DNA of 61,459 bases, filler included, from Nitrospinae bacterium RIFCSPLOWO2_12_FULL_45_22 (GTDB lineage: Bacteria; 2-12-FULL-45-22), in NCBI GenBank assembly GCA_001803565.1. It is 4 parts of 4 records of this genome, joined end to end, with 100 filler letters (N's around TTAATTAATTAA, not from the genome) between each part and the next. Parts side by side here need not be neighbours in the genome. Positions count along the whole stretch, not along the records: positions 1 to 29,101 come from MHDQ01000287.1; 3 more parts are not named here. One strand, 5' to 3'. The notes below the pieces were generated by a model that did not search any database, was not told the origin of the DNA, and was given only the letters and a program-made list of their open reading frames with translations. Shown here in pieces: positions 4,175-55,117 of the stretch; within the stretch, counting starts at the first letter, position 1, and the number at the start of each line of letters is the position of its first letter. The translations under genes and the position numbers were made by a program.

Positions 4175-4531
4175 TTACCGCAGAGCACGCAGAGAAAACA
4201 GAGTTAAAAGGCAAAGCGCAAAGCTAAGGAATTATTCCTAAGTGCATCATTTCATAAATACAGTTACGTATTATGCCTATTTTTTGCCTTCTTTTTTATT
4301 AGGAAACCAAGAGGCCAGGAAATTAACCCCGTCTAAGCGGCGGTTAACATCCCCTATTTTTAACCTCTCCTGTATTCCTGGTTTCTTTATCATAAGCGCT
4401 TTCTCTCAAATACGTCACCGTAATTATGGATTAGAGCACTTAGCTTTACATTAGCTTTACATTAGCTTTACCTTTTGCCCTTTGTCCTTTTAGCTTCCTT
4501 ATATGTCTCATCCCGGCGTTCTCGGCGGTAA
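4175..4531. repeat. Nested multi-layer palindromic intergenic element
   Basis: Four concentric imperfect inverted-repeat pairs around a central hairpin (see findings). Confidence 0.7.
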
Positions 4532-4616: not shown

Positions 4617-5726
4617 TCATAAGGACATCTTTTGTAAGATGAGGTCCTGGAAGGCTTCCTGATCCGTTATTAATTCCATGCTGAGCTTGAGGTACCAGAG
4701 GGGGAAGTCCAACGGTTGATAAGGAATGAGCCTTACGTAGTCTTTTTGTGTAGTCAAGACCATATCGGCTGATAAAGCCTTACTGTCTTGAGCGATCTCC
4801 TTTAATTGGGAGATTCTATACCTATGATGGTCTTTAAAAGCCTTAAAGAGAACCAGATTACCACCCAGCTCCTGAATCAACCCTTTGAAAGAGTCAGGGT
4901 TAGCTATACCACAGAAGGCCAGGACTTTTTTATCCTTTAAATATTCAACGTCTTTATCTTCGCCTGTCAAGGTATTTATTAGTCTTTGCCCTTGTTGGTG
5001 GCTCTGGAATACCGGGATAGATAGCCCAAGCGTCTGGTAGTGATAAAAGATTTCTGGATTAGGTTCTCTCTGAACCCGGGTCAGGAGCAGGGCATGAGCC
5101 CTTCGGATGCTATTTACCGATTCCCTTAGCAAGCCCCGGGGTAAGACCTTATGGTTGCCAAAGGGCCTGGAGGCATCCAGTAAGAGGATGTTTAAATCCC
5201 TTGCTAGAGCCAGGTGCTGAAAACCATCATCCAGGATAACTAAATCAATAGCAAAATTTTGCCAGGCATATTCTCCAAGCCTATACCGGTCTTTGCCAAC
5301 CAGCACCGGGGTATTTTTTAAGTTCCGGGCCAGTAAATAGGGTTCATCCCCCGCTTGCCCTGGCTCCGCCAATATCTTTTCACCGTCAGAGACGACCACA
5401 ACTTTTTTACGACCCTGTCTCTTATAACCCCGGCTCAGGACTGCTACCTTAAAGCCCTGGTTTTGTAAAAACCTTACTAATAGCTCCACTACTGGCGTCT
5501 TGCCCGTACCACCACTGGTTATATTGCCTACACTGATAACTTTGCAAGGTAGCTTCCGGGTCCTCATTATGCCCGTTGCATAAAGTTTTACCCGCAGTGC
5601 CTGAATTAGTTGATATAGTATGGAGATCAGCTCCAAGGGGAAAAGTATAATATCCCATGGCCGGCCAACTTCTTCCCTCAACGGGCGCCACTGCCCCACT
5701 CTACCAATCATAGAGATACCCTCCAA
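4617..5726 (-). CDS. lpxK: Tetraacyldisaccharide 4'-kinase
   Basis: VGNITSGGTGKTP, SRGY, GDEP, LDDGFQH, PRGLLRE, GIANP, FKDHH, TQKD motifs. Confidence 0.95.
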   Translation of the reverse strand: MEGISMIGRVGQWRPLREEVGRPWDIILFPLELISILYQLIQALRVKLYATGIMRTRKLPCKVISVGNITSGGTGKTPVVELLVRFLQNQGFKVAVLSRGYKRQGRKKVVVVSDGEKILAEPGQAGDEPYLLARNLKNTPVLVGKDRYRLGEYAWQNFAIDLVILDDGFQHLALARDLNILLLDASRPFGNHKVLPRGLLRESVNSIRRAHALLLTRVQREPNPEIFYHYQTLGLSIPVFQSHQQGQRLINTLTGEDKDVEYLKDKKVLAFCGIANPDSFKGLIQELGGNLVLFKAFKDHHRYRISQLKEIAQDSKALSADMVLTTQKDYVRLIPYQPLDFPLWYLKLSMELITDQEAFQDLILQKMSL

Positions 5727-5829
5727 GGGCTTTATTCTCGTGTTATCTTAAATGAAAATTACTATACGCTCAAAATAAACGGTTGTCATTTCGTTCTACC
5801 TGGATTTAGCTCCCACCGTTCGACCTACT

Positions 5830-5984
5830 TCGTAATGCGGGTCGCCTTTTCGATCATCCAAATTGTGCAGACCGGTAGACTAACCCCAAGCCAACCATTT
5901 AGATTTATCGTTCCTTTTCCGTGAAGCCAGCAAATACTTTGTCAGCTTCTCATGAGAAATAAGTGTATTTTCCGGCAGCTTCAT
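5830..5984 (-). pseudogene. Decayed cassette ORF, DUF6883-like
   Basis: MKLPENTLISHEKLTKYLLASRKRNDKSKWLAWG* followed by an out-of-frame 'TIWMIEKATRITK' fragment; starts just after the R' end of attC-4. Confidence 0.5.
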
Positions 5985-5998
5985 TTATTTCTTCACCA

Positions 5999-6127
5999 CG
6001 GTAACGATAGAACTCACCAGCCTGCGGGTAAGAGGCACAACCCGTGCAAACCAAAGACATAGAACGAAGCCAGGAACTCTCGATTCAACACTAGGGTAAG
6101 CAGGTCTGGTGCAGTGAATTGTTATGC
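5999..6127 (-). other. attC site 4 (129 bp)
   Basis: Minus strand GCATAAC-aattcactgcaccagacctgc ... gcaggctggtgagttctatc-GTTACCG; complementary arms with R''/R' boxes. Confidence 0.8.
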
Positions 6128-6132
6128 CTTTT

Positions 6133-6365
6133 TTATAGATTAAGCTCTTTAGCAACCGTATCAAGAGGAGCAGTAGGCAGATCCTTTGATTCTTCTTTTT
6201 CTTTTCTAAGCTCTTTTATATCTTCAAAATCTTCTAATGCCTCTTCGATTTGCAAAAACTCCTCCTCACATTCTATACTCTGGGGTATGATTGGTCAATT
6301 TCTTTACGTCTCCCTGAAGATTATCTTCAAGAAGCTTCAGCTTTTCAACTATCCTTTTTCCATCC
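6133..6365 (-). pseudogene. Remnant RelE-like toxin fragment plus antitoxin C-terminal fragment
   Basis: Manual translation DGKRIVEKLKLLEDNLQGDVKKLTNHTPEYRM* (RelE/ParE-like) then EEEFLQIEEALEDFEDIKELRKEKEESKDLPTAPLDTVAKELNL* (antitoxin tail), ending just before attC-4. Confidence 0.65.
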
Positions 6366-6415
6366 TGACGCAAACGCGCCAGCGTTTAGCGGTCAGGTGG
6401 AGCGTCATGTTCGGC
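6364..6415 (-). other. attC site 3, truncated (L'/R' end deleted)
   Basis: Minus strand GCCGAAC-atgacgctcca then hairpin cctgaccgctaaacg..cgtttgcgtcagg; GCCGAAC is the exact complement of the GTTCGGC core that opens this cassette at 7082. Confidence 0.7.
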
Positions 6416-6631
6416 TATACGTTCTCTTGAATCTTTTATAGCCTCAAGAATATCCTTAGTGGTTGCTTTGGTTTTTATGCCAGGGATATCAAAAGGAGAT
6501 TTTGGATTTTTTTTAAAGACAATTGCAAATGTTTCTCCACCTCGCCTTTTTATTATCACTTCTTCCTCACGTGCGATATTAAGAACCTCAGCGAACCGCT
6601 GTCTTGCTTCGGAATATGTATAGACTTTCAT
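6386..6631 (-). CDS. Phd/YefM-family antitoxin
   Basis: MKVYTYSEARQRFAEVLNIAREEEVIIKRR Phd signature; paired with a PIN toxin. Confidence 0.85.
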   Translation of the reverse strand: MKVYTYSEARQRFAEVLNIAREEEVIIKRRGGETFAIVFKKNPKSPFDIPGIKTKATTKDILEAIKDSRERIAEHDAPPDR

Positions 6632-6636
6632 AATAT

Positions 6637-7039
6637 TTACTCCATAACTTGAATGCCAATTTTCTGGGCAATTTCTTTCATCCGCCGATCAAGAGTCAAT
6701 AATGGGCTGCGCAAGTTAAGAGCACATTCCAAAAAATAGGCATCGTATGCATATATGTTACACTCAGTTGCAATATTTAAAGCCGCTCGTATATCGATCC
6801 GCCTTAATTCAACCGGTATATGCTGAACCATATCCCAGGCGAAAACGACCTCATCAGTCTTCAACGCATTTTTTTTCATCATCGTCGTTAAGGCGTTACC
6901 AATTTCAAAAGGCAATACTTCGGGTGCTACCAGATCGTATCCTTCGGTAAGGCGTATTATCATATCCTTTTCGGGCTCATTTAAAGCTACAGCNNNNNNN
7001 NNNNGCAATAAAAGTATTTGTGTCAGCAATAACTTTCAT
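6637..7039 (-). CDS. VapC/PIN-domain toxin
   Basis: True start MKVIADTNTFIA at 7039 (the 10-N gap shifts the frame artificially); PIN motifs FEIGNAL, YAYDAYFL, LLTLD. Confidence 0.85.
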
Positions 7040-7075
7040 ATGTACAATTGTGCTTTAGAATTTAATTTTTGTCAA

Positions 7076-7138
7076 GCCGAACGGCTCGGATGAGGGGCGC
7101 GCGCTTTTTGCGCGTCCCTCTCGAGCCGTTAGTTATGT
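7076..7138 (-). other. attC site 2 (63 bp)
   Basis: Minus strand ACATAAC-taacggctcgagagggacgcgc-(A-rich loop)-gcgcgcgcccctcatccgagcc-GTTCGGC; classic short attC starting 8 bp after the upstream stop codon. Confidence 0.9.
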
Positions 7139-7145
7139 GTTCTTT

Positions 7146-7916
7146 TCATTCCGTGATCGCCCCTCTCAAAATACTTTTGAATAAATCGCTCCATGTTAAC
7201 CAGCCCATATTGGCTGCAACGGTCTGAATAGGTGGAATATCTATTCCTTCAAGTGCTTTCCTCAGAGGACTTAAACTGTAGTTTCTTCCAAACTTATAGT
7301 AATTGGATAGCCAAGCGCTTTTCCATTTATCATCAAATCCTTTTTGTACTGGTGCAAGCGCTTCAGATTTATTTTTTCTTTTAGTCAGTTTCTCAAGCGG
7401 TGCTATATCAAGAAAGATAAAAAAGAATTCCCTTGTGTCGTTCAAGGGAGAATCAAGACCGATTCGTAGTTTTCTGGCAATTTGATCATGTGGCTTAGTC
7501 GGTAGCGACGCCATACTCATTGGGCTGTATAATTTTGCTTCAATGAATATCAATTTTCCCGGTAATTCTATGCTCGCATCTACTTCGGTTGATTCCTTTG
7601 TGGAAGAACCGGTATATTGTTTGCCAATATAAATTTGGATTTCATTTTCTTTAAATTTGCCATCCTTGAACAAGAATTTGTTCTGTCCTTGGTACGCGTC
7701 CTCAAATATTTCATCCAATACAGATACTTTCTTCTTTATAGGTAAGCTGTATAGCACATCGAAACAGGACCATGTTAATGCATCCTCGCTGTGAGAATTG
7801 AACCCATTATTCCACTTGTGCTGCATTCCTTTATAGTCTTGTTTGAGAAAGGCTTCCAAAGCTTTTTCTCTGCCAGGCAAAATTACATGGTTACGTCGAT
7901 AGTCTTTATAGATCAT
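7146..7916 (-). CDS. Putative PD-(D/E)XK nuclease
   Basis: SEDALTW motif and TEVD...IFIEAK (D...EAK) active-site-like pattern. Confidence 0.6.
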   Translation of the reverse strand: MIYKDYRRNHVILPGREKALEAFLKQDYKGMQHKWNNGFNSHSEDALTWSCFDVLYSLPIKKKVSVLDEIFEDAYQGQNKFLFKDGKFKENEIQIYIGKQYTGSSTKESTEVDASIELPGKLIFIEAKLYSPMSMASLPTKPHDQIARKLRIGLDSPLNDTREFFFIFLDIAPLEKLTKRKNKSEALAPVQKGFDDKWKSAWLSNYYKFGRNYSLSPLRKALEGIDIPPIQTVAANMGWLTWSDLFKSILRGAITE

Positions 7917-7983
7917 TGGCTATTCCGCTTTTGCCGATAGCTTTGACGTAACCATCTTTCCCTAAAAAAGAGCAAGAAAAGGG

Positions 7984-8012
7984 TTGACTCATTTGGTAAA
8001 CCCCAGTATATT
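7984..8012 (+). promoter_or_regulatory. Sigma70 promoter of the MTase gene, probably leaderless
   Basis: TTGACT-N17-TATATT with ATG 7 bp downstream at 8020; imperfect inverted repeat GGGTTGAC/GTAAACCC over the -35. Confidence 0.55.
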
Positions 8013-8019
8013 ACCCATC

Positions 8020-9348
8020 ATGAAACGAACAAAGCATCCCATCATCGTCAACGAGGACCTGGACATGCACCAGTTTGGACAACACCTGAGGGCTATCCGT
8101 ATTGGGTGCGGCTTGACCCAAGCCGCAGTCTCGAAACAACTGAATGTCTCTAAGGGATATATTTCCCGCCTTGAGGGAGGCAAGGCTCGCCCGTCGGAAT
8201 CGGCGGTTCGGCGACTTGCCGAGGCATGTGGGACTGATCCTGGTTCTCTCCTGATCCTGGCAGGTTACTTGCCTGGAGACATCCGAGATATTTTCAGGCA
8301 ATACCCCACGAAAGCGCCAGCGGTCTTGCGAGAAACATTCCGGGACAATGGTTATGAGACGGAAGAAAGAACCGGAATTGCAGCGGCTGTCGCCGAACCA
8401 CATGCGGTCTTTCAAGCAAATGAAGCAACCTACGATCTTGTCCAGGGAGATTGCTTCGAGTGGATGGAGCGCCATCAAGCCGATAGTATTCATGCCATTG
8501 TCACGGATCCGCCCTACGGCTTAAAGGAATACACGGACATTGAGAAATCCAAACTCAGGCGCGGCCGTGGGGGCGTTTGGCGAATCCCTCCTGCTATTGG
8601 TGGATGCGTCCGTCGTCCGCTGCCGAGGTTCACAGTTCTCAACAACGATGACAAACAAGAACTCGCAGAGTTTTTTCGGAAGTGGGGCGAGCGTGCATTT
8701 GCGGTTCTCGTTCCGGGGGGGCACGTGTTCATAGCCACCAACCCGCTTCTCTCTCAGTTGATTTACACAGCCCTCCTTGAAAGCGGATTCGAAAAGCGTG
8801 GCGAGATCATCCGCTTGGTTCAGACTCTTCGCGGCGGAGACCGTCCCAAGAATGCGCACGATGAGTTCAAAGACGTCACTGTCATGCCTCGATCCTGTTG
8901 GGAACCATGGGGTCTCTTCAGAAAACCTTGCGAGGGTCGAGTCCAGGACAACCTCCGTAAGTGGAAGACGGGGGGGCTTCGTAGGGTTGGCTTGGATCAA
9001 CCGTTCTGCGATGTTATTAGAAGCTCTCCGACGCGCTCCATTGAGCGCGAGATTGCTCCACATCCGTCCCTCAAACCACAGGGGTTTATGCGCGAGATAG
9101 TGCGTGCGGCATTGCCCCTTGGGGAAGGTATCGTCCTTGACCCATTCATGGGCGGAGGTTCGACCGTTGCTGCCGCATTGGCAGTCGGCTACACAAGCAT
9201 TGGAATCGAAAACGATCCACAGTTCTTCGCGATGGCAAAAGAGGCAATCCCGAGGCTGGCAGCTCTGGTGCCTAATGGGCAGCCCAAGGAGCGATCTTCC
9301 CGTATTTCGAGGGGCACCGCAAGCACCCAGCCGACCCTGTTTGATTGA
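8020..9348 (+). CDS. XRE-HTH fused N6/N4 DNA methyltransferase (beta class)
   Basis: N-terminal XRE HTH (LTQAAVSKQLNVSKGYISRLEGG); DPPY catalytic motif precedes HPSLKP and the DPFMGGGST SAM motif. Confidence 0.9.
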   Translation: MKRTKHPIIVNEDLDMHQFGQHLRAIRIGCGLTQAAVSKQLNVSKGYISRLEGGKARPSESAVRRLAEACGTDPGSLLILAGYLPGDIRDIFRQYPTKAPAVLRETFRDNGYETEERTGIAAAVAEPHAVFQANEATYDLVQGDCFEWMERHQADSIHAIVTDPPYGLKEYTDIEKSKLRRGRGGVWRIPPAIGGCVRRPLPRFTVLNNDDKQELAEFFRKWGERAFAVLVPGGHVFIATNPLLSQLIYTALLESGFEKRGEIIRLVQTLRGGDRPKNAHDEFKDVTVMPRSCWEPWGLFRKPCEGRVQDNLRKWKTGGLRRVGLDQPFCDVIRSSPTRSIEREIAPHPSLKPQGFMREIVRAALPLGEGIVLDPFMGGGSTVAAALAVGYTSIGIENDPQFFAMAKEAIPRLAALVPNGQPKERSSRISRGTASTQPTLFD

Positions 9349-9371
9349 AGTCAGTATCATGATCTAGCGCT

Positions 9372-10019
9372 TCATGCTCTCGGGTTTGCTAGGATGTCTC
9401 GGTGCCGCCCTATCCCGACACCGGGAAGGCGGTAGAGAAAGTTGCTCCGAAGCTTCTCAACTCCTGTCGCCGTTATAGATGCAGTGGGCGTCCTTCGAGA
9501 TGCACCCTTCCGTCCTGAAAACGACCAATCCGTGCGCACGAGCTTGGCACACAGAATCTCAAGAAACGTCAGGGGAACAGTTTCACCATTATCCTGCTCC
9601 CCTATCCCGTAGCGAAACACCATCAGCCAGCAGTCCTCTGGATTATGGCCCTGCCAACCTCCACGTTGAATGGACGATTTGACTTCTATTCCCTCGTCAC
9701 CTTTCAAGACAAGATTCGAAGAGTAATGGCCTTTGGGGAGAAGGTCGGGATGGCCCCCGACCTTCATGTTGGCCTCCAGCGTTTGTGACGCGCGAGCAAT
9801 ATTCTTCACCAGGAACTCCGAGATTATACCTGAGAGTGAGTTCCCGAGCAGGAGTTCTTCGAGAGGTCGAAACCCACCCTGAATAAGGAAGTCGTTGAGA
9901 CCGTGGAATAGCCTATATGTCTCTGCGACACCCTTCTCAACCTCGATAACCTGCAAACCATATGGTAACTGAACGCGACGATTGACGTATGTAATATCAA
10001 GCTGAGTAGGTCGTGTCAT
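9372..10019 (-). CDS. Putative Type II restriction endonuclease (PD-(D/E)XK)
   Basis: HPDLL...GIEVKSS motif; convergent with the MTase in the same cassette. Confidence 0.65.
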   Translation of the reverse strand: MTRPTQLDITYVNRRVQLPYGLQVIEVEKGVAETYRLFHGLNDFLIQGGFRPLEELLLGNSLSGIISEFLVKNIARASQTLEANMKVGGHPDLLPKGHYSSNLVLKGDEGIEVKSSIQRGGWQGHNPEDCWLMVFRYGIGEQDNGETVPLTFLEILCAKLVRTDWSFSGRKGASRRTPTASITATGVEKLRSNFLYRLPGVGIGRHRDILANPRA

Positions 10020-10053
10020 GTCTGCTCCCTTATTCTGTCGCCGCGTTTTGGTC

Positions 10054-10126
10054 GGCTAAAGGTACGGCTAAGCGGTTGCAATGGAGCGTAGCGGAATTGC
10101 AATCCGACTTGATCCGATTGTTAGAA
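10054..10126 (-). other. attC site 1 (73 bp), R' box mutated
   Basis: Minus strand TTCTAAC-aatcggatcaagtcggattgcaattccgctacgctccattgcaaccgcttagccgtacc-TTTAGCC (TTT where GTT is expected); starts 6 bp after the upstream stop. Confidence 0.85.
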
Positions 10127-11156
10127 ACAAATCATATATCAATTGGTTGCCAAATGAATTTATTCTTAAATTTTCCGGGTGCATATAAAAAACCGTCCAA
10201 AAAGCTTGTTACGTTATAATAGTACGTCTGGCTTTCAATATAAGAGTTCAAAATAGTCTCAAGTTGATTCCTGCCGAGGTCCCTCGAAAGTATTTGGGCT
10301 ACTAACAGACGAATCTTGTCATGTTCAGAATGTAATAATTTGGTTGCGAGAGGAATTCTATCCTCCCGCGACAGTAAATGAATCTGTTCAGCAGCTATTT
10401 CGGAAATATTTTTGTCTTTTCCGTAAACCAAATCTTGAATCACTTTCAACTGATTGCCACTAAGTTTAATGGCTACAATTACGGCCTTTCTCTGGGTGTA
10501 ACCATAAGTATCTTTAGCTAGATTGATGAGGCGTTCGATGTCTGTATGATCACCGTGTCTTTCAATTATTGAAATACAATCATCATTACCCCTCCCGTGC
10601 TTGAGATTCCCCATATACTGTCTTGCAAATTGAATATCAGCTTTATCATTTAACATTGACAGTCCTTTCAATGCCGCTTCTGTAAAAGAATCCTTAAGGA
10701 ATTGTTCTATGCCTGGCTTATATTGCGCTAAAAGCAATGAAGCATTATCACCATATTCTGCCTTTAACTTGTCAATAGAATTCCTTTTGATATCTTCGAA
10801 GTTATTATTCAAATCTGATCTAATTTTTTCTGCCATAGTTGAAAAGTGCAAGATTAACAAAGCTTCATAAGCCTCTTTGCCGTACCCAGAATAAAAATCA
10901 ACCATGTTTTCAAGTTCTTCTTGTGTCCGTCTCGAAAGAACCAACGGAATGATATCATCCTCTGTAACGTGAGGACTTGATAGACCTAGTAATGTCGGTC
11001 GCCCTTCTTTTGGCGTAGGAAATAGTTTAGAAATTTCACTGAGACTAAATTTTCTGCCGTTGTTAATTAACCAAATGAAGCCGATTTTTCTAACAAATGA
11101 ATCAGTATCAGCGAGGATTTTTTCTGAAATATCAGCCGTCAATGCGCTTATTCTAT

Positions 11157-12829
11157 CCGTAAAATAGCGATTGATTTTTGAGCAAGGATATTTTTAGTCC
11201 TGCTCTGAGCTTTTCTCTTACTCAGGTATTATTTTTATGTTAATTAACATTAATTACTGATTTGAAAGCCTCAATTATTATTAACCAGGCCAAATAGAGG
11301 CTATTTCTAGGCGGACTTCCCCTCTGCCTTCTCGAAGAAGGCCAATGATTATGAGATAGCTCCCTTAGACTAGGTAAATATCCTGGGCTATCCAGGTCGA
11401 CATAGGGCAGAGATGTTCTCACGAATCTCTCTAAAGAGGTTATATTTCTCTAGGCCTGCAGCAATCTTAAGGATAATACTTCTGCCATGCTTAACCACCC
11501 GGGCGGCGGTTTCAAACAGCCTCCAGCGAAGGGTGGCTACGGTATGATACATCCACTCTGGGGGACAGCACAGGCGTTTAAAACCAATCAACACATTGTA
11601 AGCAATGCTGCCCAAGCGATACCATACCGCATTGGCATAGCTTTCCCCACAGGGCAGGGTCTCTAAGCCAAATCCGATCTTGGATTCTTTGATATAATTC
11701 TCTGCATTCCCCCGGCCATTATGCCACTCTAATACCTTCTCTGCATCCCATTTCTCGGGGAAGTTGCTAGCAACGGCATGATAACGCTCTTTGGGACCCT
11801 CTCCCCATAAACTTAACTGGAGTTCTCTCTCCTTTAGCACAATCAGGCGGAAGGCCTTCTTGGTATGCTCCATGCTGTGCACCGTCTCTGCTATCCAGGC
11901 GCCATCCCTATCCTTCATGGGTTTCCAATCCTCAGCCGTGATAGCCTCTATGGCTTTTTTAACCGCACTATCCTGATCTGCCGTAATGGTATATTCTATC
12001 TGATCCTCCTCGCAGTGATTTATAATCCCTGCCTGATAAGCAGCGCTGTCACTGCGGAATCTCTTAATCTTCTTGCCCTGAGGCATCCGCCTCTGGCATT
12101 CCTTCAGGGCCTCCAACAACCCCTTGGAAGGACTCTCATTGCCCTCCCGAAATTCCTCATAGATCTTTAGCCCGTTCTCTGCTAGATACCCCTCCAAAGG
12201 CATATAGCCCTTAAAGCCCTTATAGGTCATCTGGGCCTCTCTCTTGTTGGCCTCAATAGCCGTGGCATCTAAGTCCAAAGTGTATTCACTAAAAGGCTCC
12301 CGCCTCATCACTTGATGACAGTGGGCTATCTGAACCCTCTCCAATCCCTTAAGCCCTTTTGCTCTCTTAGCAGGATTCCCCATCCGGCGCAACCAGTCCC
12401 CCGTAGCCGATACCGAAGGAATTTCATACTTCAAGACCTTCTTCAATCCCTTATCCCCCTCCAATATCCGCAAATCCTCTATACACCTACCCCCTCCTAG
12501 CTGCATCAGGATTATGGGTTCGGCATAGACTACTGCCTTCCTGCCTCGCCCACTCCCAGGCTCGGGAAGCTCCCGCGCTAAAGCCCGGTGCAATCCAAGC
12601 CCATGCAGGTATTCTCCTACCAGGGCTAATCCCGCCCTGGGAGTTAATACCTCATCTGTCATCTCTAGCTTGAATGGCAAAACGGTTTGTTGTGTCATTT
12701 TCTTCTGAGCCCTCCTTGGTTTAGGGTTTCACCCGCATGGTGATGGTTTTTTAACCATTATACCTGGCTGAAACCCTTATTCCAAGGAGATTTTTCCATT
12801 TGAGGCTATTTTTAATCACTATTTTTAGG
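11157..12829 (-). mobile_element. IS1380-family insertion sequence (1673 bp)
   Basis: IRs CCTAAAAATAGTGATTAA / CCGTAAAATAGCGATTGA; flanking direct repeat TTCTAT (11151-11156 and 12830-12835). Confidence 0.9.
11388..12698 (-). CDS. IS1380-family DDE transposase
   Basis: LTPRAGL, LDLDAT, RSDSAAY, RGNAENYIKESK, TLRWRLF motifs. Confidence 0.9.
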   Translation of the reverse strand: MTQQTVLPFKLEMTDEVLTPRAGLALVGEYLHGLGLHRALARELPEPGSGRGRKAVVYAEPIILMQLGGGRCIEDLRILEGDKGLKKVLKYEIPSVSATGDWLRRMGNPAKRAKGLKGLERVQIAHCHQVMRREPFSEYTLDLDATAIEANKREAQMTYKGFKGYMPLEGYLAENGLKIYEEFREGNESPSKGLLEALKECQRRMPQGKKIKRFRSDSAAYQAGIINHCEEDQIEYTITADQDSAVKKAIEAITAEDWKPMKDRDGAWIAETVHSMEHTKKAFRLIVLKERELQLSLWGEGPKERYHAVASNFPEKWDAEKVLEWHNGRGNAENYIKESKIGFGLETLPCGESYANAVWYRLGSIAYNVLIGFKRLCCPPEWMYHTVATLRWRLFETAARVVKHGRSIILKIAAGLEKYNLFREIRENISALCRPG

Positions 12830-14228
12830 TTCTATTAAGGTAATCTGCTGCATATTCCCTGACACGGGGCGCTGCCTCAAATATTGCTGAAACAATCAAA
12901 TCAACACTCACTTTGATGTCAAGGCTCTCCAGTGAGGCTTTATACACATTTGTTACTTCAGTTGACTTTTCTTTGAGAAGAATAAATGACTGTTCCGGTT
13001 CAAATAAATATAACAAGTCTATGTAAGTAGCCATAGCAACATTTCTTATATTTTCATTTTCATGAGTAAGTAGTGGTTCTAAAAGGGCTAGAAATGTTTT
13101 TTCTTGACAGTATTTTATTAGACTAATTGCCGCGATAATGATGTCATCGTCATCGTCCTCCAGTAGATCACTCATTATTTCTAGTGGAGGAGTAGTATTG
13201 GAATAATTCAAAGCCGCCAATGCACCTTTTCTGACTGCACCATTGCGATCATTTCGCGACAAGTAAAAAAGTATGTCTTCTATGTCGTTAACATCTTTAC
13301 CAGAAAGCCAATACCATCCCGGTATAACACCAGAAAAATCACCAAAGTAGGTTCTCATTAGGAACGATTTTTCATTAAAGGATAAATTCCACTCATTTCT
13401 TTTTCGATATACTAAGTTAGTCTCATGTGTTCCGAAAAGTTCTCCTATATGTGATGAGGAAAAAAGGGCGCTGGCAGAAAGATAGGCACGAATACGTTCC
13501 CAGTAATCTATCTCTTCCTCATTACCATCTCCTAAACATTTTCCAATCTTAGTGAAAACGTCAATGAGTTCATCGTTCTTATTATCTCGATAATTCGCTT
13601 GTTCTAGTTTTGCATATGGAACAGCGTTGGAGGTAGGCGGCTCGGTTTCTAAATCGGAAGACGTTTTCTGGGAGCTATTATTAATATCTAACAAGTATGC
13701 ACTTAGATCTTCAAAAGCTATATCCCTAAATGCACTTATGTCTTCAAATTCCTTAAATAAAAGCTCCTTGCCTTCTATAAGTTGCTTCTTGAAATGAATA
13801 CATTTTTTTAGCTGTTCTCCTGGATCTTTGAATAGCTCTTCTTCAATTCGCTTGAAAAACATCCATATTTCTGGCTTGTCACCATTGATCCTCCTGCTAC
13901 GAGCAATAGAAAATTCTTCTTCGAAGCCAGAACTATACTCACCGCTTTCCGTACCCCAGCGCTTCCATAGCATGCCAATAAATAAATCGCAATTTTCAAC
14001 ATCCTTGTTTATTAAGGTTTGCGGCCTAGAAAAGCCAGCTAGGGTATCTTCCCATCCCAATAGCTCTATTTGCCATCCAATGCGCTTTCCATATATTTTA
14101 TTTAATCTTTCAACTACATCTCTTAGAGTTTTTCTCTCGTCACTCAAATCACTGGGAGATGCGACAAAAACTGATAAAATCTTCCGTTCCAAGCTATTGG
14201 TCCTTTCTTTCTATTGAGCAATTCTATT

Positions 14229-14247
14229 TTCTAACTACTAATTATAT
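14229..14247 (-). other. attI site (simple site)
   Basis: Minus strand ATATAAT-TAGTA-GTTAGAA (L-like box, 5-bp spacer, R box); GTTAGAA is the exact complement of TTCTAAC closing the first cassette; no attC-like hairpin. Confidence 0.75.
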
Positions 14248-14334
14248 AGAAAAAAATTCTGCATTTTCCGGTAAAATGCAGAAAAATTTCTGTTATAATC
14301 CAAATATTATCGTTTTTTACAGAATTCTACCCTC

Positions 14335-14363
14335 ATTATAAAAACTAAAGAGCTATCTGACAA
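14335..14363 (-). promoter_or_regulatory. Cassette promoter Pc
   Basis: TTGTCA-N17-TATAAT on the minus strand, directly after the intI stop and pointing at attI. Confidence 0.7.
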
Positions 14364-14365
14364 TG

Positions 14366-14509
14366 TCAATGATCTAATGGGCTTTTTATACTTATCCCGG
14401 GCTTATTTAACACATGGGTGTAAATCATAGTGGTTGAGACATCGCTATGACCCAGCAACTCTTACACCGTCCTGATGTCGTAGTTTGCCTCCAGTAGATG
14501 GGTGGCATA
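14366..14509 (-). pseudogene. intI: Integron integrase C-terminal remnant with internal stop
   Basis: Manual translation [46 protein letters not shown], the IntI C-terminus with catalytic H and Y; conserved Q is now TAA (14462-14464); everything upstream is deleted. Confidence 0.9.
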
Positions 14510-14519
14510 AAATCCCTGG

Positions 14520-15845
14520 TTAGGGATTATTTTTATTCAATAATTCTTTTATTAGCTCAAGATAGCGGGAGACGGCCCCCTGGTTAGCAAAGACCACTTG
14601 TTGGGCCTTTTCTCCTAGTTCTTCTATTTTCTGGGGCTGCTGCAACAGCTCCAGCATCTTATTGGCCAGTCCTTGACCATCCTGGATCTGGATACCACCA
14701 CCGCTCTCTATCAGTATCCGGCCTATCTCTTCGAAATTAAATACCGAGGGGCCAAAAAAGACCGGCTTTTTGTGCACCGCTGGCTCCAGCAGGTTCTGGC
14801 CCCCGGTCGGGACTAGACTCCCACCTACAAAGACCAGGGTGCCTAAGGCATATAGAGAGGCTAATTCCCCTAAAGTATCCAATATAATGATGGGCTTTTG
14901 ATCTTTCTGGGGCGCTGATCCCTCTGCCAAAAGCTTAGTCCGTCTGATGCTGCGCAAGCCCTTTCTTTTTATCAGCTCCTCTATCTCCTCCGCCCGTTCA
15001 ATATGCCTGGGGGCTATTATCAAGACCAGTGATGGGTAGTGGAGCCTCAATTGCCCATACACTTCAACTATTATCTCTTCTTCACCACGATGGGTACTAC
15101 CAGCGATAATTACCTGTTCCTGCCCGTTTAAGCTAAGGGATTGGCGCAGAGTATGTAATTCTTCTTTTGAAATGGCCGTTAAAGAAGTAGCCCGGTCAAA
15201 TTTTACATTGCCCAGTACCATTACCCTTTCTGGTGGGGCCCCCAGTTGCTGGATACGGTAAGCATCTGCGTCTGTCTGCATCCCGAAAAGGTCTATCTGA
15301 CTAAGGACATGCCGCATAAAAAATCTTACCCGCCGATAGCCTTTATAAGATTTGGGTGAGAGGCGGCCGTTGATAATAGCTGACGGGACACCTTTTTGGG
15401 CCAGGTAATGGAAAAAATTGGGCCAGAGCTCGGTCTCCATAGCCAGGAAGAGCCTGGGCTGGACGAAATCTATCACCCGCTTCACCGACCAGGGATAATC
15501 AAAAGGGAAAAAGATAAACTGATCTGCCCAGGGTATTTTCTCCTGGGCCGTGCGGTATCCGGTTACCGTTACGGTAGAGAGCAGGACTTTCAACTGGGGC
15601 CAGGTCTTCTTCACTTCTCTTACGATAGGCACCGCTGCTATTACTTCACCTACTGAGACGGCATGGAGCCAGACCCAATCTCCTGGTTCCCAATCAGACC
15701 GGATATGTTGGGGTAGGAGGCCAAGGCGCTCTTTAAGGCTGATCTGGTATTTAGCAGTAGTGCTTAGTTTATACAGGATAACTGGAAATCCTAAGCCTGT
15801 GCCTATATGGAGCAATAAATTATAGATGATAAAGCCTGGTTTCAT
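14520..15845 (-). CDS. waaA: 3-deoxy-D-manno-octulosonic acid transferase
   Basis: WLHAVSVGE, ETELWPN, GSTHRGEE, APRH, GGQNLLEPA. Confidence 0.95.
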   Translation of the reverse strand: MKPGFIIYNLLLHIGTGLGFPVILYKLSTTAKYQISLKERLGLLPQHIRSDWEPGDWVWLHAVSVGEVIAAVPIVREVKKTWPQLKVLLSTVTVTGYRTAQEKIPWADQFIFFPFDYPWSVKRVIDFVQPRLFLAMETELWPNFFHYLAQKGVPSAIINGRLSPKSYKGYRRVRFFMRHVLSQIDLFGMQTDADAYRIQQLGAPPERVMVLGNVKFDRATSLTAISKEELHTLRQSLSLNGQEQVIIAGSTHRGEEEIIVEVYGQLRLHYPSLVLIIAPRHIERAEEIEELIKRKGLRSIRRTKLLAEGSAPQKDQKPIIILDTLGELASLYALGTLVFVGGSLVPTGGQNLLEPAVHKKPVFFGPSVFNFEEIGRILIESGGGIQIQDGQGLANKMLELLQQPQKIEELGEKAQQVVFANQGAVSRYLELIKELLNKNNP

Positions 15846-29101: not shown

Positions 29102-29201
29102 NNNNNNNNNNNNNNNNNNNNNNNNNNNNNNNNNNNNNNNNNNNNTTAATTAATTAANNNNNNNNNNNNNNNNNNNNNNNNNNNNNNNNNNNNNNNNNNN
29201 N
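29102..29201. other. Artificial contig linker
   Basis: N-run + TTAATTAATTAA + N-run (stops in all six frames). Confidence 0.95.
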
Positions 29202-35707: not shown

Positions 35708-35869
35708 CTCCTTGCCAGAAAGATGGGAGAATCTTCCAGGCCCTCCCCTGTCTATAGTTCAATAAAAGGTCAAAAAATATTCTACCGAAAAAAAAGATAT
35801 ATGTAAAGAAAAAAAATAACAAAAATAGACAAAAAATAACTTTTTATAACTTATGGCCCCATAAAAAAG

Positions 35870-35982
35870 GTAACCGTTCACCCATTTATTCCATCGTATT
35901 GTCATTCTGAGCGATAGCGAAGAATCTTTTTCTTTTAAGACCCCTCGCTCTGCTCAGGGTGACAGATCCAGTGAACGGTTAC
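35870..35982. mobile_element. MITE-type TIRs enclosing a GTCATT palindrome
   Basis: GTAACCGTTCAC...GTGAACGGTTAC around GTCATTCTGAGCGATAGCGAAGAATCT...CCCCTCGCTCTGCTCAGGGTGAC. Confidence 0.75.
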
Positions 35983-36151
35983 CTTTAGTTTACTATCTCC
36001 TTATATTAGATCTTTTCTTCATTCGTGCCATTAGTCTATTCGTGTAATTCGTGTCCCCTTTTTCAACCCACTACAAATTATTTCTGGCCTTCTCGAAAGG
36101 ATGCGGAATGTAAGATAAATGATTATTCCAGAACACAGAGAGATTAAATCT

Positions 36152-42035: not shown

Positions 42036-42135
42036 NNNNNNNNNNNNNNNNNNNNNNNNNNNNNNNNNNNNNNNNNNNNTTAATTAATTAANNNNNNNNN
42101 NNNNNNNNNNNNNNNNNNNNNNNNNNNNNNNNNNN
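42036..42135. other. Artificial contig linker
   Basis: N-run + TTAATTAATTAA + N-run. Confidence 0.95.
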
Positions 42136-55017: not shown

Positions 55018-55117
55018 NNNNNNNNNNNNNNNNNNNNNNNNNNNNNNNNNNNNNNNNNNNNTTAATTAATTAANNNNNNNNNNNNNNNNNNNNNNNNNNN
55101 NNNNNNNNNNNNNNNNN
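55018..55117. other. Artificial contig linker
   Basis: N-run + TTAATTAATTAA + N-run. Confidence 0.95.

Follow-up and report, generated by a model that had tools for sequence, protein, structure and literature searches.

A probable integron relic between waaA and lpxK in a Nitrospinae genome, with its integrase gene remnant oriented toward the cassettes

In Nitrospinae bacterium RIFCSPLOWO2_12_FULL_45_22 (GCA_001803565.1), an 8.8-kb insert interrupts a lipid A gene cluster between waaA and lpxK. Within the window (the whole stretch of DNA analyzed, 61,459 bases), Pfam assignments give the minus-strand order GFO/IDH/MocA oxidoreductase gene, lpxI, waaA, insert, lpxK, as an earlier sequence-only reading had proposed in placing an integron inside this cluster. 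The locus is chromosomal DNA, because housekeeping genes such as proS lie nearby. The insert is very probably a chromosomal integron relic whose integrase gene (intI) is oriented toward its own cassette array, the evidence being an IntI-like C-terminal remnant at the waaA border, followed on the same strand by three sites that score with attC covariance models. Base composition within the insert is patchy (G+C of 0.36-0.38, ~0.50, 0.51-0.57 and 0.38-0.42; by unit, 0.36-0.38, 0.51-0.57, 0.38-0.40 and 0.39-0.42), with waaA and lpxK at 0.43-0.49. The element is present in at least 20 public sequencing runs from 17 coded studies (groundwater, soil, sediment).

The following features lie at the two borders of the insert:

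14520-15845, minus strand: waaA (3-deoxy-D-manno-octulosonate, KDO, transferase; Pfam PF04413 Glycos_transf_N, E 1.3e-63)
14511-14528: hairpin with a 7-bp stem at the waaA stop, enclosing the stop codon (14522-14520)
14509-14366, minus strand: intI remnant, the last 47 codons and the stop, directly after the waaA stop, with an in-frame TAA at 14464-14462
14363-14335, minus strand: promoter motif TTGTCA-17-TATAAT, candidate cassette promoter (Pc), 11/12 positions, the best site in 5600-14700
14283-14257, minus strand: terminator-like hairpin (or part of the attI region), 11-bp stem followed by a T7 tail
14235-14229, minus strand: candidate attI core GTTAGAA, from which cassette 1 would start at 14234
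5789-5761, minus strand: promoter-like site before lpxK, 10/12 positions
4617-5726, minus strand: lpxK (tetraacyldisaccharide-1-P 4'-kinase; Pfam PF02606 LpxK, E 1.9e-95)

The integrase remnant beside waaA

The sequence of the remnant is exactly as the sequence-only reading had written it, and contigs of public runs span its junction with waaA (14359-14940 in run X17, with 0 differences, and 14430-14862 in run X5). Alignment with full-length IntI proteins shows that the remnant begins inside box II (..ATHLL..) and runs to the C-terminus, retaining the catalytic-tyrosine motif IYTHV. The Arg and His located just before its start are lost together with everything upstream, and the internal TAA occupies a nearly invariant Gln position. 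Read through this stop with an X, the remnant scores 72.9 bits against the integron-integrase profile TIGR02249 (profile positions 268-313 of 315, 46 residues), whereas Xer-type profiles reach 53.7, 49.8 and 48.0 bits with 34-36 residues aligned. Longer homologues are 81-96% identical among the 120 matches listed; most measure 390-430 residues, and many bear the source name integron integrase. All eight full-length relatives tested score 437-473 bits on TIGR02249, above its cutoff of 265. The comparison that had been proposed to separate IntI from XerC/D thus comes down on the side of IntI (72.9 vs at most 53.7 bits; 8/8 relatives IntI). The remnant itself, at 72.9 bits, 47 codons and with an in-frame TAA, falls below the family threshold of 265 and, as judged from its sequence, is what is left of an IntI-type gene, no longer a functional family member. 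No convincing second IntI-like sequence was found in the 61 kb by tblastn with full-length IntI, for which the remnant is the only match at E<0.1 and the next has E 0.11.

These data bear on whether the insert might be a generic defence or mobile island that carries a phage- or Xer-type relic, its hairpins being terminators or repetitive extragenic palindrome (REP)-like repeats. Mixed G+C, an insertion sequence (IS), and restriction-modification (R-M) and toxin-antitoxin (TA) genes, all present here, are typical of any island. However, the remnant scores ~19 bits better with IntI and reaches 11 residues further into the IntI-specific C-terminal tail (..SPLD) than the Xer alignments do, which, together with the three strand-consistent attC sites within 4.1 kb described below and none at E<1 elsewhere on either strand, makes a generic island almost inconceivable.

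Two observations concern the relatives of the remnant. The closest IntIs (P0016, P0023, P0025, P0013, P0049, P0071) carry an extra N-terminal stretch of ~80-135 residues, with a conserved WHP..KYWSFP, before the TIGR02249 match. At 14411-14509, the summed contig depth in runs X1, X5 and X17 is raised, reaching six contigs at 14429, with divergence of contigs on the low side; the conserved remnant attracts other integron integrase genes of the same communities in contig mapping. An A>G change at 14464, turning TAA into CAA on the coding strand, apparently comes from contigs of such other integrases, because a window-like X17 contig keeps TAA.

attC sites and cassette boundaries

The attC covariance models were home-made, derived from cassette arrays that accompany complete intI genes in unrelated metagenome contigs, and are not those of IntegronFinder. 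The comparison set comprised the 80 best-matching loci with a complete or near-complete intI, found by a metagenome scan with an IntI alignment, and training used 27 aligned sites from five of these loci (four with an upstream, opposite-strand array and one with a downstream, same-strand array). RNAalifold on the training alignment gives 17 consensus pairs, with compensatory changes in 13, and the canonical single-base bulges appear on the 5' arm. Of the 111 sites that the first model (R1) finds in the 80 loci at E<=0.1, 82 lie upstream of intI and on the other strand. Another 23 lie downstream of intI on its own strand, and six are upstream of it there, five of which belong to one locus. At this threshold, R1 places no site within intI (77 kb) and none on the other strand downstream of it (200 kb). 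The 84 sites outside the training set divide similarly (58 upstream/opposite, 20 downstream/same strand, 6 upstream/same strand). This coherence of position and strand does not depend on model building and indicates a very low false-positive rate. All 111 sites served to rebuild the model as R2. Beside real integrases, sites outside the training set score 20.9-65.7 bits, the range within which the window sites lie.

Two of the comparison loci stand out in their own right. The five attC matches at L069:2565-7208 lie on the strand of intI but upstream of it, fit neither layout type and may be the tail of another integron, while L006:576-7846 carries a very homogeneous array upstream of intI, with 17 attC sites of 129-130 nt.

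The window was scanned on both strands over its 61,459 bases with all speed filters off. R1 and R2 each return exactly three matches at E<0.1, all on the minus strand and inside the insert; no further site reaches E<1 on either strand, the next best scoring 10.8-11.9 bits. With a half-site considered below, the candidates are:

10126-10054, minus strand: attC 1, R1 19.3 bits (E 0.027), R2 21.9 bits (E 0.011); R'' TTCTAAC, R' TTTAGCC, in which the G of GTT has become T
7138-7076, minus strand: attC 2, R1 32.9 bits (E 1.8e-5), R2 38.9 bits (E 2.3e-6); R'' ACATAAC (7138-7132), R' GTTCGGC
6415 to ~6365, minus strand: attC half-site, 5.6 bits with the full model
6127-5999, minus strand: attC 3, 129 nt, R1 35.8 bits (E 3.7e-6), R2 38.5 bits (E 2.7e-6); R'' GCATAAC, R' GTTACCG

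In the model alignments of attC 2 and attC 3, the R and L helices and the 5'-arm bulges are kept. The orientation of attC 2 is fixed, because the opposite strand scores only 9.8 and 11.9 bits (R1 and R2, respectively); a free-energy fold of 7130-7080 with 3'-arm bulges had favored the opposite orientation and was overruled by the covariance models, which set R'' as ACATAAC. Neither of the outcomes that the sequence-only reading had named as telling against an integron was found: the remnant groups with IntI and not with XerC/D, and attC sites score with the attC model. Rfam, at gathering thresholds over the whole window, reports tRNA only and is uninformative on attC.

Four attC sites had been claimed. 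Of the four that could be matched to this claim, three are identified by both models, whereas the fourth, at 6415-6347, scores only 5.6 bits. It nevertheless contains an R'' box (GCCGAAC), a 6-nt spacer and CTCCACCTGAC in a register that matches the consensus perfectly, and CTCCACCTGAC is identical to the L'' box of sites in locus L022. The half-site also fits a 5'-arm pattern with 5 occurrences in the window vs 1.14 expected, and contigs of two runs (X1, X2) part from the window at 6364. It looks like an attC reduced by a deletion to its 5' half. No attC was found between the R-M block and the next open reading frame (ORF) (7900-8100, best 1.3 bits), nor, in the model scan, between 5999 and lpxK.

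Further observations were made on individual sites. Contigs in X1, X2 and X17 match the core of attC 1 alone and diverge on both sides of it (loose ends 10065-10122); this type of attC therefore flanks other cassettes in these communities. The 129-nt attC 3 resembles the sites of the L006 array in length and at both ends, and differs from them in its central part.

In an integron, the first six bases of a cassette (TTRRRY) should complement the R'' box of the attC of the same cassette. GTTAGAA lies where the sequence-only reading had located it. Only one other GTT word occurs in the 173 nt that separate the remnant stop from the first ORF, and GTTAGAA is exactly complementary (7/7) to the R'' box of attC 1, TTCTAAC at 10126. 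Likewise, GTTCGGC at 7082 is the exact 7/7 complement of GCCGAAC at 6415, itself one of three AAC words in 313 nt, so that both complementarities claimed for cassette ends are exact. The cassette ending at attC 2 begins near GTTACGT (7952-7946), which is complementary to ACATAAC at 6/7 positions, and the unit ending at attC 3 has no matching start (GTTGAAA vs GCATAAC). This boundary signature is symmetric between strands, and the orientation of the array therefore rests on the model scores.

Between the remnant and GTTAGAA, the promoter motif TTGTCA-N17-TATAAT is present, as had been read. The promoter scan overall gives 22 sites vs 15.4 +/- 3.9 in shuffles, and the terminator-like hairpin sits between the promoter-like site and GTTAGAA with the first cassette. 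The suggestion of the sequence-only reading that the array can still be expressed is conjectural. In X1 contigs, the T run shows a 1-nt length difference at 14250.

The attC gaps of 2.9 and 0.95 kb on one strand place the array within the definition that Cury et al. (2016; PMC4889954) give of a CALIN (cluster of attC sites lacking an integron integrase), with two or more attC sites separated by under 4 kb. That paper reports recognizable intI pseudogenes near only 15 of 279 CALIN and gives the frequency of IS as 12% among CALIN and 23% among complete integrons. In its terms, the insert is a CALIN with an adjacent intI pseudogene. It resembles those cases in having at least two same-strand attC sites less than 4 kb apart, an adjoining intI fragment, an internal IS, and no functional intI found near its array. 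It differs from them, as described there, in that its pseudogene is a clean 5' truncation at a housekeeping terminator hairpin, lies on the same strand as the array, and was recognized together with attC models of the present study's own making.

The same source lists the placement of cassettes at a secondary chromosomal site as a route to CALIN, and by this route an integrase from elsewhere would have built the array, with the remnant as an unrelated passenger. That intI pseudogenes accompany so few CALIN agrees with such an origin. However, the remnant lies directly upstream of the array and co-oriented with it, the attI-like core is as far from it as expected and is an exact match for pairing with the first attC, and the chance landing of an IntI fragment at this spot is improbable, which leaves secondary-site placement very unlikely.

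Same-strand layout and origin of the relic

The remnant and the top strands of all three attC sites are on the minus strand, with the remnant upstream of the array, in agreement with the same-strand layout proposed from the sequence. Among the 37 comparison loci with attC matches, 24 are divergent, 11 are same-strand with a downstream array and 2 are odd; the same-strand layout is thus a common minority within the 80 best-matching IntI loci. An ‘inverted integrase group’ of integrons was named by Domingues et al. (2012; PMC3575428), and the insert resembles it in having intI upstream of the cassettes on the same strand, a likeness of layout only, as the 46 surviving residues are not closer to same-strand loci.

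A native same-strand integron cut by a single deletion is favored as the probable origin, over inversion plus deletion. The deletion would have extended from just beyond the 3' hairpin of waaA to approximately codon 350 of intI, leaving 47 codons, within which a stop codon now also lies. In the alternative, an ordinary divergent integron would have had its intI flipped by an inversion or other rearrangement before a deletion truncated it. The remnant is on average closer to the IntIs of divergent loci (77.6% mean identity, n=25) than to those of same-strand loci (73.0%, n=11), with maxima of 84.8% and 78.3%, respectively, over 46 residues, too short for a tree; an active IS within the array also fits a rearrangement. 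Against this, two events are needed where one deletion is enough, and clades are beyond the resolution of 46 residues. GTTAGAA occurs 131 nt downstream of the remnant stop, within a sequence (..TAGTAGTTAGAA) that starts 126 nt after it, and several same-strand loci have ..ATTGTTAGRC in the corresponding place, ~160-190 nt after the intI stop. In addition, the closest IntI locus, L003 (89% to the remnant), has no attC match in the 10 kb upstream of its intI, and TATAATTAGTAGTT around GTTAGAA in the window resembles TATAGTTAATTGTT, 81 nt downstream of the L003 IntI stop, a pattern picked post hoc. The motif TATARTTARTWGTT, likewise selected post hoc, occurs once in the window and once in L003. 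A flipped intI is for these reasons unlikely, and a native same-strand integron remains the preferred origin.

Several points weigh against reading the insert as a same-strand integron relic, beginning with the identity pattern just given. The covariance models are home-made, and their seed sites were picked with a hairpin heuristic (AAC..GTT) devised for this study. At 19-22 bits (E 0.01-0.03), attC 1 is a marginal site with a mutated R' box, the site at 6415-6347 fails the attC model, and two expected attC sites are absent, one after the R-M block and one at the lpxK-side end. Of four boundaries with a downstream attC, two pair at 7/7, one at 6/7 and one not at all. An additional domain near patch III marks integron integrases, and this IntI-defining insertion falls in the deleted part of the gene. 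The likeness of the attI region to the 11 same-strand loci is not significant (for the best, L034, 24 of 300 shuffles reach the score). Finally, the analysis covers a 61-kb window, and an IntI acting in trans or further arrays may exist elsewhere in the genome.

With no integrase of its own, the array could not be rearranged in cis. An IntI encoded elsewhere could presumably act in trans on the two well-preserved attC sites. The sequence-only reading had suggested that the array may have been kept by its position within an essential cluster and by its addiction modules, which is speculation. Comparable sedentary integrons are known from Xanthomonas, where Colombi et al. (2025; PMC12444791) describe widespread intI inactivation and stabilized arrays at a fixed site downstream of ilvD. 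The insert is similarly sedentary beside a core metabolic gene, has lost integrase function and shows no array turnover; unlike the ilvD integrons of that account, it belongs to a poorly sampled lineage and has a different anchor gene. That the waaA-lpxK interval is, by analogy with ilvD, the ancestral and lineage-wide home of a sedentary same-strand integron, in a lineage that branches deeply and has hardly been sampled, is a doubtful proposition. Were it true, read-through from the cassettes would feed lipid A synthesis, as the essential lpxK lies directly downstream and co-oriented, and selection on lpxK expression would help to retain and constrain the array even after loss of the integrase. 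A direct waaA-lpxK joint was not seen in the contigs of four runs, which is no evidence against the existence of such a form. Relatives of the WaaA protein (P0272-P0274) are found at 99%, 81% and 70% identity; below 70%, the nearest named ones are 45-47% identical. A waaA search of genome contigs gave one match, from Acidobacteriota (35% identity, on a 4.6-kb contig), which is uninformative on synteny.

Cassette contents and decay of the array

The array downstream of the remnant comprises at least five cassette-like units, encoded as follows:

14192-12825, minus strand: 5' half (455 codons) of a ~790-aa DUF4062 and HEAT-repeat gene, its stop codon inside the IS end
12829-11157, minus strand: IS1380-family IS of 1673 bp, transposase ORF 12698-11388
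11142-10132, minus strand: 3' half (336 codons) of the same ~790-aa gene
10053-7953: R-M block (G+C 0.51-0.57), two convergent genes, distal attC absent
10019-9372, minus strand: 215-aa PD..EVK nuclease-like ORF, convergent with the methyltransferase gene
7984-9348, plus strand: helix-turn-helix (HTH)-fused N4/N6 methyltransferase (PADLOC MTase_II, 375 bits; Pfam N6_N4_Mtase and HTH_31)
7952-7076, minus strand: cassette with a 256-aa ORF (7916-7146) and attC 2
7081-6365, minus strand: TA cassette with a PIN gene (7037-6637), a Phd/YefM gene (6631-6386) and the attC 5' half
6364-5999, minus strand: gene fragments, then attC 3
5998-5727, minus strand: terminal cassette stub with a 33-codon ORF (5984-5886), attC absent

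The first unit is a single ~790-aa DUF4062-HEAT gene, split by the IS in this allele. The 336-aa ORF was used in a profile-free search against 1.84 billion representatives, which returned 612 homologues (E<=0.001); among the 150 listed, the majority have lengths of 775-830 aa and match from about residue 455 to the end. The best match, P0121 (790 aa), aligns with the 455-aa ORF over its residues 1-455 (65% identity, ungapped) and with the 336-aa ORF over residues 458-783 (58% identity). Direct BLASTP finds no similarity between the two ORFs; they are successive portions of a single gene and not paralogues. The 5' half matches Pfam DUF4062 at 44.7 bits and PADLOC PDC-S60 at 99.7 bits, the latter over profile positions 2-199 of 906 only, and the remainder of the protein is HEAT-like. 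A defence role of this gene is a lead only.

The transposase of the IS scores 295 bits against NF033539 (cutoff 180). The terminal inverted repeats of the element are imperfect, start with CC and agree over 13 of 16 positions; on either side lies a copy of a 6-bp target duplication, ATAGAA, at 12835-12830 and 11156-11151. In contigs of three of four runs, an IS-free joint connects 11150 to 12830, skipping 1679 bases, with six letters that fit either side; the sides of the joint are 24, 24 and 80 letters long, and IS-bearing contigs occur alongside. The insertion is thus polymorphic, and the gene also occurs uninterrupted in natural populations. Once the IS is discounted, cassette 1 measures ~2.5 kb and consists of one gene and its attC, which explains the match between GTTAGAA and TTCTAAC. 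Also present among the run contigs is a joint of low depth, 11180>14282, which carries 19 foreign letters (side 20).

The second unit is G+C-rich, would encode a type II R-M pair and no longer has its attC. In the 215-aa ORF, P91 D92 .. E112 V113 K114 are invariant in 19 sequences, and this motif, together with its position beside the methyltransferase gene, identifies it as a putative endonuclease. It has no match in family or PDB sequence searches. Its structure model has a predicted local distance difference test (pLDDT) score of 58.7 and gives no Foldseek match at E<=0.001 (the best, NaeI, has E 0.33, not significant), and Atlas places it in unnamed clusters with a weak RE_ScaI lead, carried by 21% of one cluster. 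Its relatives are 77-95% identical, and their few source names come from different phyla (Roseiflexus, Planctomycetes, Chloroflexota). Such unusually high conservation fits what may be a widely transferred R-M gene.

A 256-aa nuclease-like ORF forms the third unit. It has a weak REase-ARP match (E 6e-5, under the Pfam cutoff); a PDB sequence search gave nothing meaningful, and Atlas returned only unnamed clusters and weak REase leads. The fourth unit is a PIN and Phd pair with a truncated attC. PIN scores 29.6 bits (cutoff 23.6), Phd 36.6 (cutoff 29.8) and TIGR01552 29.5 (cutoff 20.8), and the two genes are adjacent, toxin first; by domain content they are a type II TA pair of predicted partners. 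An 11-N run at 6994-7004 falls inside the PIN gene; contigs of three runs are without 13 letters there, which indicates that the N run is an artefact of the record and that the PIN frame is continuous. The fifth unit consists of gene fragments and the intact 129-nt attC 3, followed by the stub adjoining lpxK. The fragments at 6364-5999 match no Pfam family at E<=1. A RelE-like assignment of 6385-6266 was dropped, Pfam giving nothing at E<=1, and the 33-codon ORF of the stub shows a weak DUF6883 match (E 0.052).

The array holds predicted defence and TA cassettes, as the sequence-only reading had it, namely a type II methyltransferase with a PD..EVK nuclease-like neighbor, a PIN and Phd pair, and a gene whose N-terminus matches PDC-S60. 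According to Darracq et al. (2024; 10.1101/2024.07.02.601686), cassettes commonly carry defence, R-M and TA genes, and the TA genes stabilize arrays. Like the defence-storing sedentary integrons of that account, the insert carries an R-M methyltransferase, PIN/Phd and a PADLOC candidate match; unlike them, it is small and eroding, and its predicted candidate defence gene is disrupted by an IS in this allele. The description of the array as ‘frozen’, in contrast, does not hold. Decay is seen instead, as a polymorphic IS splits the first cassette gene and one attC each is truncated, missing or mutated in R'; for these reasons the element is decaying. Point mutation, deletion and IS insertion together erode both recombination sites and genes.

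General knowledge of integrons is unchanged by this locus, as intI pseudogenes by attC clusters, inactivated chromosomal integrons and defence or TA cassettes have already been described. It offers a well-delimited case of integron death, in which an integrase stub abuts a housekeeping gene, attC sites range from intact to half-deleted and an IS is polymorphic. It also adds a same-strand integron from a lineage with only distant named relatives and supplies candidate defence genes in the ~790-aa DUF4062-HEAT protein and the widely shared R-M pair.

Three minor features were noted elsewhere in the window. Between lpxK and an acyl-CoA synthetase gene, contigs of X1, X2 and X5 join 4238 to 4451, skipping 212 bases, and the skipped segment (4239-4450) has a summed contig depth 20-25x that of neighboring genes (~374-387 vs 15-18) and a strong hairpin at 4301-4387; it looks like a small repeated mobile insertion resembling a miniature inverted-repeat transposable element (MITE). 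The N blocks at 29102-29201, 42036-42135 and 55018-55117 each consist of 44 N, 12 letters and 44 N and are spaced ~12.9 kb apart. Finally, 35868-35984 is a near-perfect palindrome of 117 nt (AGGTAACCGTTCAC...GTGAACGGTTACCT; -29 kcal/mol with DNA parameters), and GGGTCAGGGATCAG-like words recur near 20.7 kb and at 47-48 kb, which suggests that the palindrome is a member of a repeat family in this genome.

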